61,867 nucleotides of DNA from Dehalococcoidia bacterium (lineage in GTDB: Bacteria > Chloroflexota > Dehalococcoidia > JAUQQI01): contig DAOUCL010000043.1 of assembly GCA_034432015.1 (NCBI GenBank), positions 1-61,867 of the forward strand. Reading direction: 5' to 3'. This document shows, piece after piece, positions 36,551 to 43,356 of the stretch. The position numbers and the translations under genes were made by a program. The notes beneath the pieces are model-generated. The model was not told where the DNA came from. It ran no database searches and was given only the letters and a program-made list of their open reading frames with translations. The stretch's first letter is position 1. Every line of letters begins with the position of its first letter.

Positions 36551-37108
36551 ATGGTCTTTCAGCCGGCCCAACTCGAATCGGCAGGGGTTTTACTCACCGC
36601 CCTGCTGGTCAGGCTGCTTATAAGCCTGGTCATCTTAGGGGTCGCCTACCTGGTTACCGGGCGGGTTTCGGGCCTGGTAAACCGGGTGCTGGCCCGGACC
36701 CGGGCTGAGCCCAACGCCCGCCTCCTGGTCGCCCGGATCATCCAGGGTGGGGTTTGGGCGGTGGCCGGGCTGGTCATCCTGGGGGTTTGGGGGACCGAGC
36801 TGGGGGCCCTGGCCGCCGGGGTCGGCCTCTTCAGCCTGGCCATCTCCATCGCCCTTCAGGACGTTCTGCGCAACTGGGTCGTGGGCCTTTACCTGCTCAT
36901 CGAGCGACCCTTTAAGATCGGCGACCGGGTGGCCCTTAAGGACAGCCTGGGGGTCATCGAGGACGTTCAGCTCCGGGTGACCCGGATCCGGGCCGACGAC
37001 GGCCGGGTGATCTACATCCCGAACCTGACGGTTTTTAACGAGATAATCGCCGTCCTTCCCCCCACCCCCAGGGCCGAAGACTCCGGCCCTTCCCAGACCC
37101 AGGCCTAG
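36551..37108 (+). CDS. small mechanosensitive ion channel (MscS family)
   Basis: Three TM helices followed by the ERPFKIGDRV beta-domain motif. Confidence 0.75.
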   Translation: MVFQPAQLESAGVLLTALLVRLLISLVILGVAYLVTGRVSGLVNRVLARTRAEPNARLLVARIIQGGVWAVAGLVILGVWGTELGALAAGVGLFSLAISIALQDVLRNWVVGLYLLIERPFKIGDRVALKDSLGVIEDVQLRVTRIRADDGRVIYIPNLTVFNEIIAVLPPTPRAEDSGPSQTQA

Positions 37109-38193
37109 GCCGTCCCAGGCCGCCTCCGGACGACCCGAACGGCGTACCGGGTCGCCTCGGCCAGAAACCGGCCCACCTCCCAGGCGGGCACCCCCCGCCG
37201 GGCCAGGGCGGCCCGAAGGGCCCCCGCCCGCTCGGGGGCGACGGCGATGAGCAGTCCGCCCGAGGTCTGGGCATCGGCCAGGATGAGCTTTTCGGCCTCG
37301 GTAAAGGCGTCGGCCCACTCGACCCGCACCCGGCCGGCCTTTTCGGTGCCGGAGAGGAAGGCCAGGTTTCGGCGGGTGCCCCCGGGCACCACCCCGGCCT
37401 CGGCCAGCTCCCGGACCGCCGGCATCAGGGGCACCGCCTCGAAGTAGACCTCCGCCCCCAGGGGGCTTTCCCGGACCATTTCGTAGAGGTGGCCCAGGAG
37501 GCCGTAGCCGGTGACGTCGGTGGCCGCCCGCACCCCCACCTCCACCATCGCCTCCGAGGCCTCCCGGTTGAGGGTGAGCATCCAGCGGACGGCCTCGGCC
37601 ACGGCTTCGGGCGGGGCCACCTCCCGCTTAATGGCCGTGGAGATGATGCCCGTTCCCAAAGGTTTGGTCAGAAAGAGGCGGTCGCCGGGACGGGCGGCCG
37701 TCTTGGCGATGATGCGCTCGGGGTGGACGGTTCCGGTTACTACCAGTCCGTACTTGGGCTCCGGGTCGTCGATGGAGTGGCCGCCGATAATCGGGGCCCC
37801 GGCCTCCCGGGCCTTCTCGGCCCCACCCCGCAGGATCTCCACCAGCACCTCCCGGGGCAGGGTATTAACGGGGAAGCCGATGATGTTCAGGGCGAAGCGG
37901 GGCCGGCCGCCCATCGCGTAGATGTCGCTTAAGGCGTTGGCGGCCGCAATGGCGCCGAAGAGAAAGGGGTCGTCCACGATGGGGGTAAAGAAATCGACCG
38001 TCTGGACCACGGCCAGGTCGTCCGAAAGACGGTAAACCCCGGCGTCGTCCGGCCGGTCGAGGCCGACCAGGACGTTGGGGTCGGTAAAAAAGGGCACCCG
38101 GCTCAGGACCTCGACGAGGTCCTCAGGACTTAGCTTGCAGGCTCAGCCGGCGCCGTGGGATAAGGTTGTAAGCCGAATCCTTTCCCGCTCCAA
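37105..38193 (-). CDS. selD: selenide, water dikinase (selenophosphate synthetase), selenocysteine-containing; UGA at 38145..38143 read as Sec
   Basis: The listed ORF (start 38097) lacks the catalytic N-terminus. The frame stays open upstream through one TGA to TTG 38193, giving (M)[31 protein letters not shown]. This aligns to E. coli [25 protein letters not shown]. Confidence 0.85.
38102..38126 (-). promoter_or_regulatory. SECIS-like hairpin downstream of the selD UGA
   Basis: 8-bp stem AGGACCUC/GAGGUCCU with an apical GUC, plus 2 outer pairs. It starts about 17-20 nt 3' of the UGA. Confidence 0.5.
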
Positions 38194-38196
38194 GGG

Positions 38197-39129
38197 CTAC
38201 CACCAGATAATTTTCTCGGCCGTCTCGGCCAGCTCTTCGGTCGGGGTGGTCCAGACGCCGCTCGACAGATACTTCCAGCCGCCGTCGGCAAAAAGGACGA
38301 CGATGTTGGCCGCGGTGAGCCGCTCGGCGTATTTTAGGGCGGCGTAGAGGGCCGCCCCGGAGGAGATGCCGGCGAAGATCCCCTCCCGGTGAAGCAGTTC
38401 CCGGGTGAGCCGGAAGGAGTCGATGGCCCGGACTAAAATCTTGCCGTCCAGGAGGTTAAGGTCGAGAATCGGGGGAACAAAGCCCTCCTCCAGGCTTCGG
38501 AGGCCCTGAACCTGCTCCCCGGGGTGGGGTTCGGCGGCGACCACCCGGATGTTCGGGTTGTATTCTTTGAGGCGGCGACCGACCCCCATCAGGGTGCCGC
38601 CGGTACCCAGGCCGGCGACGAAGACGTCGACATCAGGCAGGTCTTCGAGGATCTCCGGCCCGGTGGTCTCGTAGTGGGCCAGGGGGTTGGCCAGATTCCC
38701 GTACTGGTAGGGCATAAAGTACTGGGGGTCCTCGGCCAGCTTGAGGGCCACCTCGATGGAACCGTTGGTGCCCCGGCGGCCGTCGGTAAGGATTATTTCG
38801 GCCCCGAAGGCCTGAAGCACCTGCCGGCGCTCGACGCTTACATTTTCGGGCATCACCACCTTTAGCCGGTAGCCCTTCACCCGGCAGACCATGGCCAGGG
38901 AGATGCCGGTGTTGCCGCTGGTGGGCTCAAGGACGGTCTTATCCGGGGTGAGCTTGCCCTCGGCCTCGGCCCGCTCGATCATATACTTGGCGATCCGGTC
39001 CTTAAGGCTGCCCGAGGGGTTGTGACCCTCGAGCTTGGCGAAGATACGGACCCCTTCCTTCGGCCGGAACCGCTTAAGCTCCACTAAAGGCGTCCGGCCG
39101 ATGGCCCCCAGAATGTCATCGCAGCGCAT
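38197..39129 (-). CDS. cysM: cysteine synthase, CysM-like (candidate CysO-thiocarboxylate-dependent)
   Basis: PLP-enzyme motifs (NPSGSLKDR, TSGNTG, GTGGT). ATG 39129 follows a GGAGG formed by the Gly-Gly codons of cysO. The alternative start TTG 39147 is listed on the track. Confidence 0.85.
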   Translation of the reverse strand: MRCDDILGAIGRTPLVELKRFRPKEGVRIFAKLEGHNPSGSLKDRIAKYMIERAEAEGKLTPDKTVLEPTSGNTGISLAMVCRVKGYRLKVVMPENVSVERRQVLQAFGAEIILTDGRRGTNGSIEVALKLAEDPQYFMPYQYGNLANPLAHYETTGPEILEDLPDVDVFVAGLGTGGTLMGVGRRLKEYNPNIRVVAAEPHPGEQVQGLRSLEEGFVPPILDLNLLDGKILVRAIDSFRLTRELLHREGIFAGISSGAALYAALKYAERLTAANIVVLFADGGWKYLSSGVWTTPTEELAETAEKIIWW

Positions 39130-39409
39130 GGTCTTGGCCTCCGGCAAGGGCCGGCAAAATGGAAAGGACGTCCCCGTCCCGGGTGGGGGTATTGAGCCGC
39201 TGGAGGAAACGGACGTCCTCGTCGTTTAGATAAATGTTGATATGCCGCCGGATCTCCCCGTTTTCGTCCAGCAGAAGCTTTTTAATGCCGGGGAACTGCT
39301 GTTCCAGCCGGTCCAGGATTTCCCCGACCGTTCGGCCTTCGACCTTGATCACCTTCTGGCCGCCCACGGCCGACTGAAGGATCGCCGGAACCCGAACTTC
39401 AACCGCCAT
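39116..39409 (-). CDS. cysO: CysO/MoaD/ThiS-family ubiquitin-fold sulfur-carrier protein (97 aa) with a 6-residue tail after Gly-Gly
   Basis: MAVEVRVPAILQSAVGGQK...NIYLNDEDVRF...DGDVLSILPALAGG-QDHALR resembles M. tuberculosis CysO (..NIYVNDEDVRF...DGDSVTILPAVAGG). Only the last 97 codons of track ORF 39116-39874 are coding. Confidence 0.8.
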   Translation of the reverse strand: MAVEVRVPAILQSAVGGQKVIKVEGRTVGEILDRLEQQFPGIKKLLLDENGEIRRHINIYLNDEDVRFLQRLNTPTRDGDVLSILPALAGGQDHALR

Positions 39410-39428: not shown

Positions 39429-40523
39429 TCAGCTCTGGGCGAGCACGGGCACGCCGCAGAAGGCTTCGTAGTCGATAAGCTCGGTGATGGTGGGGTTGTC
39501 CCCGCAGACCGGGCAGTTGGGGTTGCGGCGAATCTTAACGGTACGAAAGTCCATCGCCAGGGTGTCGATGAGGAGCAGCCGCCCGACCAACGGCTCGCCC
39601 AGCCCGAGAATGAGCTTGATGGCCTCGGTGGCCTGGATGCAGCCCACCAGGCCGGTAACCACCCCGAAGACGCCCGCCTCGGCGCAATTGGGCACCGCCC
39701 CGGGGGGCGGCGGGGCCGGGTAGAGGCACCGGTAGCAGCCGTGGCCCGGCATAAAGACCGTGACCTGGGCGTCGAACTTAAAGACGCTGGCGTCCACCAG
39801 GGGCTTTTTAAGAAAGACGCAGGCGTCGTTGACCAGGTAGCGGGTGGGGAAGTTGTCCGAGCCGTTGAGGACAACGTCGTAGTCTTTGATAATATCTAGG
39901 GCGTTGGCCGAGGTTAAAGCGGTGTTGTAGGGCACGACCTCGACGTCGGGGTTGATGCGCCGGACGGTGTCCCGGGCCGACTCCACCTTCGGCCGGCCGA
40001 TGTCGTCGGTGTGGTGGATGACCTGCCGCTGCAGGTTCGAAAGGTCGACCACGTCGAAGTCCACAACCCCGATCCGGCCGACTCCGGCGGCAGCCAGGTA
40101 GAGAATAGCCGGGGAGCCCAGCCCCCCCGCCCCGATGACCAGGACGCTGGACCCCAAAAGCTTGCGCTGGCCGGCCCCCCCGATCTCCGGCATGATCATG
40201 TGCCGGCTGTAGCGGATCACCTGCTCGGGGGTTAGGGTTCGGGGGGCCGCCCCACCGGCCAACGCCGGCACCACCGCAATCTCATCCCCGTCCCGGACCG
40301 GGGTACTCGGGCCGGCCAGGTCCTCGATCTCCTGGCTGTTCACGTAGACGTTGACGTACCGGCGCAGCCGGCCGGCCTCGTCGAAGAGCTCGGCCTTAAG
40401 CTCGGGAAACTGGGCCGCAAGCCGGTCCAGGGCCTCGGCCACATCCCGGGCCTCCACCTGGACCCGGGCCTGGTTGCCCGTAAACCGCCGCAAGGGCGTC
40501 CCGATGTAGACGTTAACCGGCAT
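39429..40523 (-). CDS. fusion protein: N-terminal CysO-like Ubl domain (ending ALAGG) + ThiF/MoeB-type E1 adenylyltransferase (no rhodanese domain)
   Basis: MPVNVYIG...NVYVNSQEIE...DGDEIAVVPALAGG-AAPRTLTPEQVIRYSRHMIMPEIG, the Rossmann motif VIGAGGLGS, and two CxxC pairs (CYRC, CPVC). ATG 40523 is spaced 11 nt from GGAGGG. Confidence 0.8.
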   Translation of the reverse strand: MPVNVYIGTPLRRFTGNQARVQVEARDVAEALDRLAAQFPELKAELFDEAGRLRRYVNVYVNSQEIEDLAGPSTPVRDGDEIAVVPALAGGAAPRTLTPEQVIRYSRHMIMPEIGGAGQRKLLGSSVLVIGAGGLGSPAILYLAAAGVGRIGVVDFDVVDLSNLQRQVIHHTDDIGRPKVESARDTVRRINPDVEVVPYNTALTSANALDIIKDYDVVLNGSDNFPTRYLVNDACVFLKKPLVDASVFKFDAQVTVFMPGHGCYRCLYPAPPPPGAVPNCAEAGVFGVVTGLVGCIQATEAIKLILGLGEPLVGRLLLIDTLAMDFRTVKIRRNPNCPVCGDNPTITELIDYEAFCGVPVLAQS

Positions 40524-40545
40524 CTTCACCATTACCCTCCGTCGG

Positions 40546-41490
40546 TTAAAATGGCATCGTCAGGTAGCGTTCACCGGTATCGGGCAGGATGGTCACCACC
40601 ACCTTGCCCGCCCCGAGCCGCTCTGCCACCTGCAAGGCCGCAAAGACGTTGGCCCCGGAAGATATCCCCACCAGAAGCCCCTCCTCCCGGGCGAGGCGGG
40701 CGGCGGTGGCGATGGCATCCTCATCCCGCACGTGGATGAGCTCGTCGATGACCTCCCGATTGAGCACCCCGGGCACGAAGCTGGCCCCCATCCCCTGAAT
40801 GGCGTGGGGCCGGAACTTGCCCCCGGCCAGCACCGGGGCTTTGGCGGGTTCCACCCCGACCACCAGCACCCCGGGAACCTCCGCCTTAAGCACCTCGCCC
40901 ACCCCCGTTATGGTGCCGCCGGTGCCGATGCCGATGACCACGGCGTTCACCTTCCCGTCGGTGGCCTCCAGGATCTCCCGGGCCGTCGTCTGCCGGTGGA
41001 TTTCGGGGTTGGCCGGGTTTTCGAACTGCTGGGGCATAAAGTAGCCGTATTTTTCCACCAGCTCCTGGGCGGCGTAAACCGCCCCGGTCATCCCCTCGAT
41101 GGCCGGGGTAAGGATTATCTCCGCCCCGAACCGCTGGAGGAGCCGGCGCCGCTCGATGCTCATATCCTCCGGCATCGTCAGGATTAGCCGGTAGCCCTTT
41201 ACGGCGGCCACCATCGCCAGGCCGATGCCGGTGTTGCCGCTGGTCGGCTCCACAATAGTGTCCCCGGGCTTTAAAATTCCGGCCCGCTCGGCCGCCTCCA
41301 CCATGGCCAGGGCGATGCGGTCCTTGACGCTTCCGGCCGGGTTAAGGGATTCCAGCTTGGCATAGATGGTGGCCGAGCCCGGCTTCGGCAGCCGGTTCAG
41401 CCGGACCATGGGGGTATTGCCGATAAGGTCTAGGACGCTTTCGGCGATTTTGGGCCGGGTTAAGACCTTGCGCGGAGCCCCCTCGGCCAT
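40546..41490 (-). CDS. cysK: cysteine synthase A (O-acetylserine sulfhydrylase)
   Basis: [38 protein letters not shown]. The start is trimmed to ATG 41490 behind AAGGA. Confidence 0.9.
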
Positions 41491-41501: not shown

Positions 41502-41939
41502 TTAGATGTGATAAATCACCCGGGTTTCGGCCTGCTCTTCCCGCTCCAGCAGGTCCTGAAGGGTGACCGAATCGAGGATGCGCCGGGTCACCGCCCGGAC
41601 CTCCTGCCAGACCGACCGCTGGCCGCACCGCTCCGAGAGCTGGCAGGCGCCCATGTCATCCAGGCAGTCCAGGACGGCGATATTGCCCTCGAGGGCGGCG
41701 ACGACCTCCCCCATGGTGATCTGACTGGGGGGCCGCATAAGCATGTGGCCGCCCTGGGGCCCCCGGATGCTCCGGATGAGGCCGGCCTTCCGCAGCACCG
41801 TCAGCAGCTGGTCCAGGTAGGGTTCGGGGATGAACTGGCGGGCCGCGATCTCGCTGGTCTGCACGGGCCCCTCACCGTAATGGCGGGCCAGGTCCACCAT
41901 CGCCCGGATGCCATAATCGGCCTTCATGGAGATGCGCAT
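41502..41939 (-). CDS. Rrf2-family transcriptional regulator (IscR/CymR-like) with a three-Cys cluster-type motif
   Basis: [14 protein letters not shown]... wHTH, then [14 protein letters not shown] (C-x6-C-x5-C). Confidence 0.85.
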
Positions 41940-43356
41940 CGGCGGCCGTACCCCCTCCGTTATTGTTTAGCGTTAAACTCAACTTTATATTAGCAGATGG
42001 ACCGCCCGCATTTCCAGCCCGGGTTGTATTAGCCGGGCCCCCGGCCCCCAGGCGGACTGCCTGCCGGGCCAGCCGGTTCGCCTCGGCGTTTTCGGCCCGG
42101 GGCACCCATTTAAGGTCGAAAACCTCAAACCGGCCGGCCAGGCGGCGCACCGCCTCGTAGAGGCCCTGAAGCCGCCGGTCAAGGACCCGGTATTCGCCCC
42201 GCAGTTGCCGGTAAACCAGCTCCGAATCCAGCCGCACCTCGACCTGCCGGGCGCCCAGTTCCAGGGCCAGCTCCAGGGCCCGCTTTAAGGCCAGGTATTC
42301 GGCCTCGTTGTTGGTGGCCCTCCCCACCGGTTCCTGCCAGCTGCCCACCCGCCGGCCGTCGGCGAAGGCGACAACCCCGATGCCCGCCGGACCCGGATTT
42401 CCCGAACTGGCCCCGTCCACGTAAAAGACGAGCCTGGCCGGGGCCTCGGCCGCCCTGGGGCCGTCCCCCGACCCCGAAATAACCCCGGCCGCGACCAGGG
42501 CCTGCCTGATCGCCTCCTTTTCGGCCTCGTTGGGGGGCCGGAGGGGGCTCCGGGGGCGTCCGGCCCGGCGGCCTTGAAGTTCGAGGGCCCATTTTACTTT
42601 GGCCGGCAGGTTCGGCCCCTCCACCGCCCGCCAGATTATCAGGAGCCGGCGGTGGACCTCCAGGGCCTCCTGATGGCGCCCGGCCCGGACGGCTTCAAAG
42701 AGGCTTACCCCCAGGCCCGGGGCCACCGTAACGACGGCGGCGATGGCCCCGTGGGCCCCCAGCGCAAAGGAAGGGTAAAGCAGGTCGTCCACCGCGCTCA
42801 GCACCGTCAGCCGGTGGCCGAGGCGCAGCAGGAGGTCGGCCAGGGTGTGCAGGTCGCCCCCGCTCTGCTTGACGCTCCGGACCAGGGGCACCGCCGCCAG
42901 CTTTTCCATCGTGTCGGCCGTGATAGGCGCCCAGGGAAGCACGTTGTAGACGATGATGGGCAGGCCCACCGCCTCGGCAAGGCGGCCGTAGTACTCGACC
43001 AGGCCCTGGGCATCCGGCCGCCACAGGTAGTGGGGCGGGGTCACCTGGAGCCCCCCAACCCCGGCCTCTTTGGCCGCCAGCCCCAGCCGGATGGCTTCCC
43101 GGGTGGTGTCGGGGATGGCGCTGCCGTAGACGGGCACCCGGCCCCGGGCGGCTTCCACGGCCGCCCGGCAGGCCTGATAAAGTTCGGCCGGGTCGAGGCC
43201 TGCCCCCTCCCCCGTCGAGCCCCCAACGGCCAGGCCGTGGACTCCGGCCCCGACCAGATAATCGACCTCATCGGCCAGGGCCTTTAAGTCCAGCTCCTCG
43301 GCGTCGTCGAAAGGGGTAACCATCGGCGGGATGATGCCTTCGATGCGTTCGGACAT
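41872..43356 (-). CDS. fusion protein: DapA-family class I aldolase + C-terminal RNase H (RNase HI/RVT_3-like) domain
   Basis: aa 1-293: PMVTPF, GGSTGEG, Schiff-base-type VKQSGGD. aa 308-436: YVDGAS, NNEAEYLAL, LDSELV, NAEANRLA. It is a single uninterrupted ORF whose 58-aa tail reads across the rrf2 promoter/RBS and overlaps rrf2 by 68 nt. Confidence 0.7.
   Translation of the reverse strand: MSERIEGIIPPMVTPFDDAEELDLKALADEVDYLVGAGVHGLAVGGSTGEGAGLDPAELYQACRAAVEAARGRVPVYGSAIPDTTREAIRLGLAAKEAGVGGLQVTPPHYLWRPDAQGLVEYYGRLAEAVGLPIIVYNVLPWAPITADTMEKLAAVPLVRSVKQSGGDLHTLADLLLRLGHRLTVLSAVDDLLYPSFALGAHGAIAAVVTVAPGLGVSLFEAVRAGRHQEALEVHRRLLIIWRAVEGPNLPAKVKWALELQGRRAGRPRSPLRPPNEAEKEAIRQALVAAGVISGSGDGPRAAEAPARLVFYVDGASSGNPGPAGIGVVAFADGRRVGSWQEPVGRATNNEAEYLALKRALELALELGARQVEVRLDSELVYRQLRGEYRVLDRRLQGLYEAVRRLAGRFEVFDLKWVPRAENAEANRLARQAVRLGAGGPANTTRAGNAGGPSANIKLSLTLNNNGGGTAADAHLHEGRLWHPGDGGPGPPLR

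Follow-up and report, generated by a model that had tools for sequence, protein, structure and literature searches.

Among the closest known systems to the one analyzed here is the CysO/CysM/Mec+/MoeZ route of Mycobacterium tuberculosis, where the carrier CysO ends in Gly-Gly and the JAMM peptidase Mec+, as Burns and colleagues reportedly found in 2005, hydrolyses the Gly-Gly-Cys bond at each turnover, regenerating CysO from the CysO-cysteine adduct. We studied a stretch of 61,867 nucleotides from a Dehalococcoidia bacterium of the phylum Chloroflexota (assembly GCA_034432015.1, contig DAOUCL010000043.1, positions 1 to 61,867; hereafter the window), in which a tight minus-strand operon encodes a single protein made of a ubiquitin-like (Ubl) sulfur carrier followed by a MoeB/ThiF-type E1 activating enzyme. 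The operon resembles the M. tuberculosis route in its CysM, which matches the M. tuberculosis enzyme (3e-96), and in its two carriers, which both match CysO; a Mec+-type JAMM peptidase is also encoded in the genome. Moreover, one E1 probably serves several carriers, as MoeZR does in M. tuberculosis (PMC3227635). The differences are, however, substantial. The E1 of the window has no rhodanese domain, whereas enzymes of the MoeZ/MoeBR type combine an E1 with a C-terminal rhodanese that supplies persulfide sulfur, and it bears a second carrier at its N-terminus. Both carriers of the operon have residues after Gly-Gly, the JAMM gene lies on another contig, and the operon also comprises CysK, an Rrf2 regulator and selD.

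Short-tailed carriers that are trimmed by a pathway-linked JAMM before E1 activation are known from Wolinella (HcyS-Ala and HcyD) and Pseudomonas (QbsE-CF and QbsD). The free carriers of our genome and of related loci similarly end in Gly-Gly followed by 1 to 14 residues, whereas in the fusion the 'extension' is a whole enzyme of 270 residues. In the MoaD-MoaE fusions, one of which is also present in the source genome, a ThiS/MoaD carrier is likewise translated in frame with a partner enzyme and has an internal Gly-Gly. The activity of the M. tuberculosis MoaD-MoaE fusion MoaX requires cleavage (PMC4326299), the JAMM peptidase DR0402 of Deinococcus radiodurans cuts MoaD-MoaE (PMC8832034), and HvJAMM1 of Haloferax acts on SAMP1-MoaE (PMC4443979). 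The partner in these proteins is a downstream sulfur-using enzyme, while in the window it is the activating E1. A further likeness is with the eukaryotic ubiquitin precursors (polyubiquitin and ubiquitin-ribosomal protein fusions), in which an N-terminal modifier is released by a peptidase after Gly-Gly. There, however, the partner is not an activating enzyme, processing falls mostly to cysteine proteases, and the modifier serves to tag proteins instead of transferring sulfur. The gene of the window is a clean prokaryotic parallel to these precursors, with a carrier that is made as part of a fusion and is most likely released by a Gly-Gly-specific JAMM.

The Ubl-E1 architecture itself is already known. 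Ubl-ThiF fusions of Campylobacter and of Gram-positive bacteria with a low GC content, as well as operons of JAMM, E1, Ubl and cysteine synthase genes, were described by Iyer et al. 2006 (PMC1779556); the Ubl-E1-TBP protein of Thaumarchaeota figures among the fusions shared with bacteria in Makarova and Koonin 2010; and a fusion census (mSystems 2024) reported MoaD-MoeB in Thaumarchaeota and in only two bacterial groups, Rokubacteria and NC10, filing it under molybdenum-cofactor synthesis. The earlier note on this DNA had treated the arrangement as unusual, but it belongs to a large family whose architecture has been in the literature since 2006-2010. As in the published proteins, an N-terminal beta-grasp domain precedes the E1 Rossmann domain, and NC10-type proteins are among the direct homologues of ours. 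The Campylobacter proteins differ, being described as 'distinct from ThiS' and lying in thiamine operons. In addition, the papers list the architecture without a mechanism, whereas our survey recovers it from at least a dozen phyla and places it, together with CysM and JAMM, in cysteine synthesis. New here are this context, the wider phyletic spread, the repeated fusion and fission of the two domains, and the combination of one E1 and one JAMM with seven mostly extended carriers.

A genuine in-frame fusion of carrier and E1

The fusion is encoded by one open reading frame (ORF) on the minus strand (39429-40532; 367 residues plus stop), with the same two-domain architecture as all 120 best homologues. 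Translation likely starts from ATG 40523 or GTG 40529, both 3' of a GGAGGG at about 40537-40532. The first 91 residues counted from this ATG (MPVNVYIG...DGDEIAVVPALAGG) correspond to residues 4-94 of the ORF (40251-40523, minus strand) and form a ubiquitin-fold sulfur carrier of the CysO/SAMP1-type ThiS/MoaD family. This domain ends in ALAGG, and the ggt ggg codons of Gly93-Gly94, at 40256-40251, mark its C-terminal end. The Pfam ThiS profile (PF02597) matches residues 12-94 with 48 bits (cut-off 22.5), the SAMP1 profile NF041918 gives a borderline 60.0 bits (cut-off 60), and a search of the PDB returned M. tuberculosis CysO (3dwg_C, 1.6e-11). Six residues, AAPRTL (40233-40250, minus strand), link the carrier to the E1, and the proposed cleavage lies directly before them, after Gly94. 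In the primary translation product 273 residues follow Gly94, which hence has no free C-terminal carboxylate to be adenylated; one would arise only through such a cleavage.

The remainder of the protein (39432-40232, minus strand) comprises the core of an E1 adenylyltransferase of the MoeB/ThiF type and, at the C-terminus, a short tail that is conserved (...DYEAFCG). The Pfam ThiF profile (PF00899) covers residues 108-342 with 293 bits along all of its 238 positions (1-238/238), and the best PDB matches are MoeB (1jw9_B, 1e-61) and ThiF. In an alignment of 69 sequences, the RYxRH motif (R107, Y108, R110, H111), the GxGGLG motif (G134, G136, G137, G139), the zinc-binding CxxC pairs (C266/C269 and C340/C343) and the crossover-loop C283 are all invariant. 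Profile searches returned no rhodanese match in the fusion protein, which stops 25 residues past the ThiF domain. We also noticed that the tail after the second CxxC pair (residues 343-367; 39432-39506, minus strand) contains six positions, L352, D354, Y355, F358, C359 and G360, that are invariant in the same 69 sequences. One may speculate that Cys359 is a candidate sulfur relay that replaces the rhodanese domain.

The earlier note had described a Ubl fused in frame to its E1 and running directly from its first 91 residues into AAPRTL-TPEQVIRYSRH, and both the ORF and the Pfam matches agree with this description. It had also pointed out that the coding strand has a run of six C at the junction (40246-40241; GGGGGG when read on the plus strand), and that with one C fewer the sequence would read GCG GCC CCC GAA CCC TAA, that is AAPEP*, with an in-frame GTG at 40220-40218 from which the E1 could begin. 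These three details are correct. The position of the homopolymer exactly at the junction, with a stop five codons on once a C is removed, led the note to consider an assembly artefact, in which the true run would have five C and separate two genes, a Ubl ending in ...AGGAAPEP* and an E1 starting from GTG 40220. The comparison with relatives leaves this explanation with a negligible probability. In two assemblies of a relative with 96% identity the junction reads GCG CCT CCC CGA, so that the run is broken to four C and the frame is the same, and in two assemblies of a relative with 89% identity the linker is different and 10 codons longer, again in frame. The 120 best homologues that the protein collection yielded (61-96% identity) have PF02597 and PF00899 without exception, and the fused gene is present in all five genomes of the genus. 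Moreover, starting the E1 at GTG 40220 would remove the conserved LTPEQ N-terminal segment that unfused E1s keep. Since all best homologues are fused, the frame is kept in four independent assemblies and the genus is uniform, the artefact is refuted and the fusion is a genuine in-frame gene architecture rather than a sequencing error. The gene should therefore not be split or marked as frameshifted in annotation. Public records name its homologues MoeB, ThiF or SAMP1, and the label 'MoeB' or 'ThiF' conceals the carrier.

The same slippery-looking homopolymer and the same in-frame GTG could in principle yield two products from one mRNA without proteolysis, either by programmed frameshifting on the C run, so that a fraction of the ribosomes would stop after the Ubl, or by internal initiation of the E1. 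We rejected both options as very improbable. Conservation of the homopolymer already fails among the closest relatives, nothing of the kind occurs in linkers elsewhere, and a frameshifted product would still bear five residues past Gly-Gly, while no Shine-Dalgarno sequence is evident upstream of GTG 40220.

Fused and split forms among homologues

We compared the carrier end in the 69 aligned sequences and in the 120 best homologues; the latter, where named, belong to Chloroflexota, NC10/Methylomirabilis and a candidate Acidobacteriota lineage. Gly93-Gly94 is invariant in both sets (69 out of 69 and 120 out of 120), whereas the linker differs from one homologue to another, in length as well as in sequence. 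Of the 120 homologues, 85 have Ala directly after Gly-Gly, and 88% have a small residue there. The modal distance from Gly-Gly to the RY motif is 10 residues, and unfused E1s have a similar stretch before this motif. In most members of the family, therefore, hardly anything separates the carrier from the E1's natural N-terminus.

Fused and unfused forms coexist in the class. Out of 36 genomes with an orthologue, approximately half match from residue 2-6, and are hence fused, while the other half match from about residue 95 and are unfused; besides the five genomes of the genus, about 13 from other families of the class are fused. Orthologues are thus of mixed state rather than uniformly split, as the earlier note had considered possible, and the closest ones are all fused. 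By scanning species-representative genomes we collected 80 loci, which we annotated with profiles built from the window's own proteins. They come from many phyla, including Bacillota (Thermaerobacter), Gemmatimonadota, Acidobacteriota, Elusimicrobiota, Bacteroidota, Ignavibacteriota, Rhodothermota, Actinomycetota, Planctomycetota, Spirochaetota and several archaea. Four arrangements recur among them. The first, which is that of the window, is Rrf2-CysK-[Ubl-E1]-Ubl-CysM, in some cases followed by JAMM. The second (Rrf2-PALP-[Ubl-E1]-PALP-JAMM, NC10-type, as in loci L006 and L007) and the third (PALP-JAMM-[Ubl-E1-extra C-terminal domain]) have no free carrier. In the fourth, the same operon has a separate carrier gene immediately upstream of the E1, and this carrier ends in GG* or in GG plus 1-4 residues. 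The order Rrf2-PALP-[Ubl-E1] recurs in L003, L004, L006, L014, L088 and L090, and the fused proteins of Gemmatimonadota and Acidobacteriota have about 110-125 extra C-terminal residues.

When we inspected the flanks of the 28 non-redundant fused loci (up to 6-8 kb per side where the contig allowed), a JAMM gene was found in 24 of them and a free ThiS-family ORF was absent from 26. Consistently, in a complete Gemmatimonadota chromosome the only ThiS-family genes beyond the fused one are a MoaD that adjoins MoaE and a ThiS that adjoins ThiG. The tree of the E1 domain contains well-supported branches that force at least five changes between the fused and the split state. Even sister Bryobacterales genomes differ, one being fused (L011) and the other split (L019), with 100% support. 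The invariant Gly-Gly, the split orthologues, the changes of state and the operons with no other carrier together lead us to conclude that fused domain and free CysO-type carrier are functionally one and the same, and that the stop codon between carrier and E1 has been repeatedly lost and regained.

Some of these loci show further variations. About 4 kb upstream of the fused gene, L004/L005 (1074-3957) contain a second carrier system composed of a 415-residue PALP enzyme, a NIL domain protein, a ThiS ending in GGA and an E1 that is unfused and extended by 92 residues at its C-terminus. In L039 (5995-7533) and L085 (2387-3598) a rhodanese occupies the N-terminus of the E1, the position held by the Ubl in the protein of the window, and in L039 a free carrier ending in GGR lies directly upstream of the rhodanese-E1. 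Different modules can therefore be fused to the N-terminus in this E1 family.

Release or retention of the fused carrier

We made an inventory of carriers, E1s and JAMM peptidases in the source genome, whose assembly is 95% complete. The fused protein is the only full E1. A second ThiF match (on C8) is a partial profile match to a sequence that looks like an NAD-dependent sugar epimerase/dehydratase, and we discarded it. There are seven carriers of the ThiS/MoaD family, six of which have residues after Gly-Gly. Two of them are the fused domain and the free CysO of the operon, which has the tail QDHALR, and a third is the MoaD-MoaE fusion (C282:12760-13488, minus strand), with the internal Gly-Gly ..FVPPVSGG-EVQPMIEI... 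The other four, which jointly account for C198:324-1874, C48:315-1470, C62:20048-20350 and C282:14848-15192, are a ThiS ending in GGGQC; a small TtuB-like carrier that ends in GG-QADALH and adjoins a TtuA-like tRNA 2-sulfurtransferase; a carrier with a 14-residue tail after GG, placed before an Ldh_2-like gene; and a carrier that ends exactly in GG, directly after a Zn-ribbon threonine-synthase-like enzyme, which possibly belongs to a homocysteine route. The genome also encodes one intact JAMM/MPN+ peptidase (C112:12311-12745), with an 85.7-bit match to PF14464 and an intact metal site (EC..., HSHx7SxxD). Among the peptidases of the surveyed loci, its closest relative is the JAB encoded in the L004 operon (49.6% identity), which has the gene order of the window plus a JAMM gene. 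It is also related to PfJAMM1 of Pyrococcus (5lda), while its match to the haloarchaeal desampylase family is below threshold. One E1 and one JAMM thus appear to be shared by seven carriers, of which six have to be trimmed.

Taken together, we consider it probable that the gene encodes a pro-carrier that JAMM cuts free and the E1 subsequently activates, so that CysM can make cysteine. The sequences show the architecture and its conservation, the gene contexts, the inventory of carriers, E1 and JAMM, and purifying selection; the cleavage, the enzyme performing it and the sulfur donor are the parts that we infer. The polyprotein would fold as two independent domains connected by a short flexible joint. 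The stand-alone JAMM/MPN+ of C112, orthologue of the operon peptidase of relatives, would hydrolyse the bond after Gly94, yielding a free carrier that ends in Gly-Gly and a free E1. The released E1 would then adenylate the carrier, and a donor would convert it to the thiocarboxylate; since the E1 has no rhodanese domain, this donor would be sulfide or a persulfide. The M. tuberculosis-type CysM, encoded two genes downstream, would use the thiocarboxylate to make cysteine. The same peptidase would also remove the six residues after Gly-Gly from the free CysO and likewise trim the remaining extended carriers, including the MoaD-MoaE fusion, and the released E1 would serve all seven carriers, as it is the only one found in the genome.

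Out of the three explanations offered in the earlier note, namely proteolytic release, a role in cis as regulator or decoy, and the artefact dismissed above, release is the best supported. It is favored by the invariant Gly-Gly, by the interchangeable fused and split forms, by the operons with no other carrier, by the JAMM gene adjoining 24 of the 28 fused loci and by the one encoded elsewhere in the source genome. Strong JAMM matches were obtained in all genomes of the class that have a fused E1, but also in every E1-bearing relative, be it fused or unfused, and such co-occurrence therefore does not discriminate between the readings.

The ratio of non-synonymous to synonymous substitutions (dN/dS) is 0.12-0.17 for the fused domain, compared with 0.06-0.15 in the free CysO and 0.05-0.06 in the E1, which indicates that the fused carrier evolves under purifying selection. 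A search of the PDB found no chain holding both a Ubl and an E1 domain. In the AlphaFold2 model both domains are confident, residues 92-97 have a per-residue confidence (pLDDT) below 50, and the predicted template modeling score (pTM) is 0.72; the junction between carrier and E1 is hence predicted to be flexible. Purifying selection, the flexible junction and the MoaD-MoaE precedents fit a working domain followed by an exposed junction.

Several observations weigh against a released carrier. Directly before cysM the operon also has a gene for a free CysO, which belongs to the actinobacterial lineage, so that the fused copy is not strictly needed as a carrier for CysM, and the JAMM gene lies outside this operon. 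In most homologues there is almost no linker, and the access of the peptidase to the scissile bond is an assumption on our part. For fused Ubls found beside a solo ThiS in thiamine operons, Iyer et al. 2006 (PMC1779556) argued for a different role. Finally, we found no processing or biochemical study of any Ubl-E1 fusion in the literature, only comparative-genomic mentions, and the biochemistry of such precursors is a small but real gap.

The main competing explanation is that the Ubl is never released. In this alternative, which we regard as unlikely although worth serious consideration, the free CysO would be the real carrier and the fused domain either a pseudo-substrate that fills the carrier-binding site and regulates the cell's only E1, or a built-in surface of the E1 for docking CysM, CysK or JAMM, similarly to the ubiquitin-fold domain of eukaryotic E1s. 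A Mtb-type CysO immediately before cysM already supplies a carrier, the near absence of a linker in most homologues and the reasonable pTM of the two-domain model are compatible with a permanent module, the dN/dS of the fused domain is somewhat above that of the E1, and the conclusion of Iyer et al. for the thiamine operons points the same way. However, an invariant terminal Gly-Gly has no obvious purpose in a structural domain, and in sister taxa the same Ubl lineage is a separate gene that ends in GG* directly upstream of the E1. Moreover, most fused operons (such as PALP-JAB-[Ubl-E1] and those of L006/L007) offer CysM no other carrier, and a permanently filled binding site would hinder the E1 in serving six other carriers.

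A more speculative variant of the released carrier is that the fusion makes the sole E1 a zymogen, in which the Ubl, joined directly to the N-terminal helix, occupies or occludes a carrier-binding site until JAMM cuts after Gly94. The arginine of the RYxRH motif, on the N-terminal helix, is said in the MoeB structure paper to reach the active site of the partner subunit in MoeB-type dimers. We consider this variant improbable. If true, one JAMM cut would switch on all seven carrier pathways (cysteine, probably homocysteine, molybdenum cofactor, thiamine, tRNA thiolation and others), acting as a proteolytic master switch for sulfur trafficking, and would also hand the E1 a pre-docked first substrate.

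In the simpler form of a JAMM-released pro-carrier, the pairing of a single E1 and a single JAMM with seven carriers, six of which need trimming, would make the peptidase a general maturation factor for sulfur trafficking. Because the peptidase of the pathway already cuts after Gly-Gly, the loss of the stop codon would be cheap and nearly neutral, which would account for the repeated fusion and fission. That carrier and E1 have repeatedly acquired and shed the stop codon between them exemplifies the way in which a peptidase already cutting after Gly-Gly could render such fusions nearly neutral.

The operon and its neighboring genes

In the direction of transcription, the operon comprises an Rrf2/CymR-like regulator, CysK, the fusion, the CysO-like carrier, CysM and selD. 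The regulator at its head (41502-41939, minus strand) matches PF02082 with 140 bits and CymR (NF047409) below threshold. Immediately upstream of the fusion lies CysK, or O-acetylserine sulfhydrylase A (40546-41490, minus strand; TIGR01139, 443 bits, cut-off 351).

The free CysO-like carrier (39116-39409, minus strand) has 97 residues and ends in ...PALAGG-QDHALR*. It matches PF02597 with 58 bits and SAMP1 with 64.5 bits, above the cut-off, and M. tuberculosis CysO (3dwg_C) was again returned by the PDB search. The earlier note had recognized the fused domain as a paralog of this protein, with NxYxN and DGD....PALAGG in common, and the alignment bears this out, with 45% identity over 91 residues without gaps (E 9e-29), far above chance. 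In a tree of the carrier domains, based on a short alignment and with moderate support, the two copies fall in different old lineages, that of the free CysO being the one found directly before cysM in Actinomycetota. For this reason we rejected a recent tandem duplication of cysO as the origin of the fused domain. The tail QDHALR (39116-39136, minus strand) overlaps the start of cysM, the two genes sharing 14 nucleotides. Close relatives have RGHAQR or QCDAGF instead, so that the length of the tail is kept and its sequence is not. These six residues look like a side effect of the two genes overlapping and must be trimmed.

CysM (38197-39129, minus strand) is a pyridoxal phosphate-dependent sulfhydrylase, and its best solved relative is the M. 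tuberculosis CysM / O-phosphoserine sulfhydrylase (3dwg_A, 3dki_A; 3e-96), clearly above other cysteine synthases. Judging from this match, it is clearly of the M. tuberculosis O-phosphoserine sulfhydrylase type. A few bases past its stop begins selD (37105-38193, minus strand), which has an in-frame TGA at the catalytic position and, with this codon read as selenocysteine, gives ...LSHGAGUACKLSPEDL.... The ORF called with translation table 11 (38097-37105) is therefore short by about 32 N-terminal codons. At the other end of the operon, one minus-strand ORF (41872-43356) combines an aldolase of the DHDPS/DapA family with an RNase H / RVT_3 domain, and gene calling gives this fusion in the close relatives L088 and L089 as well.

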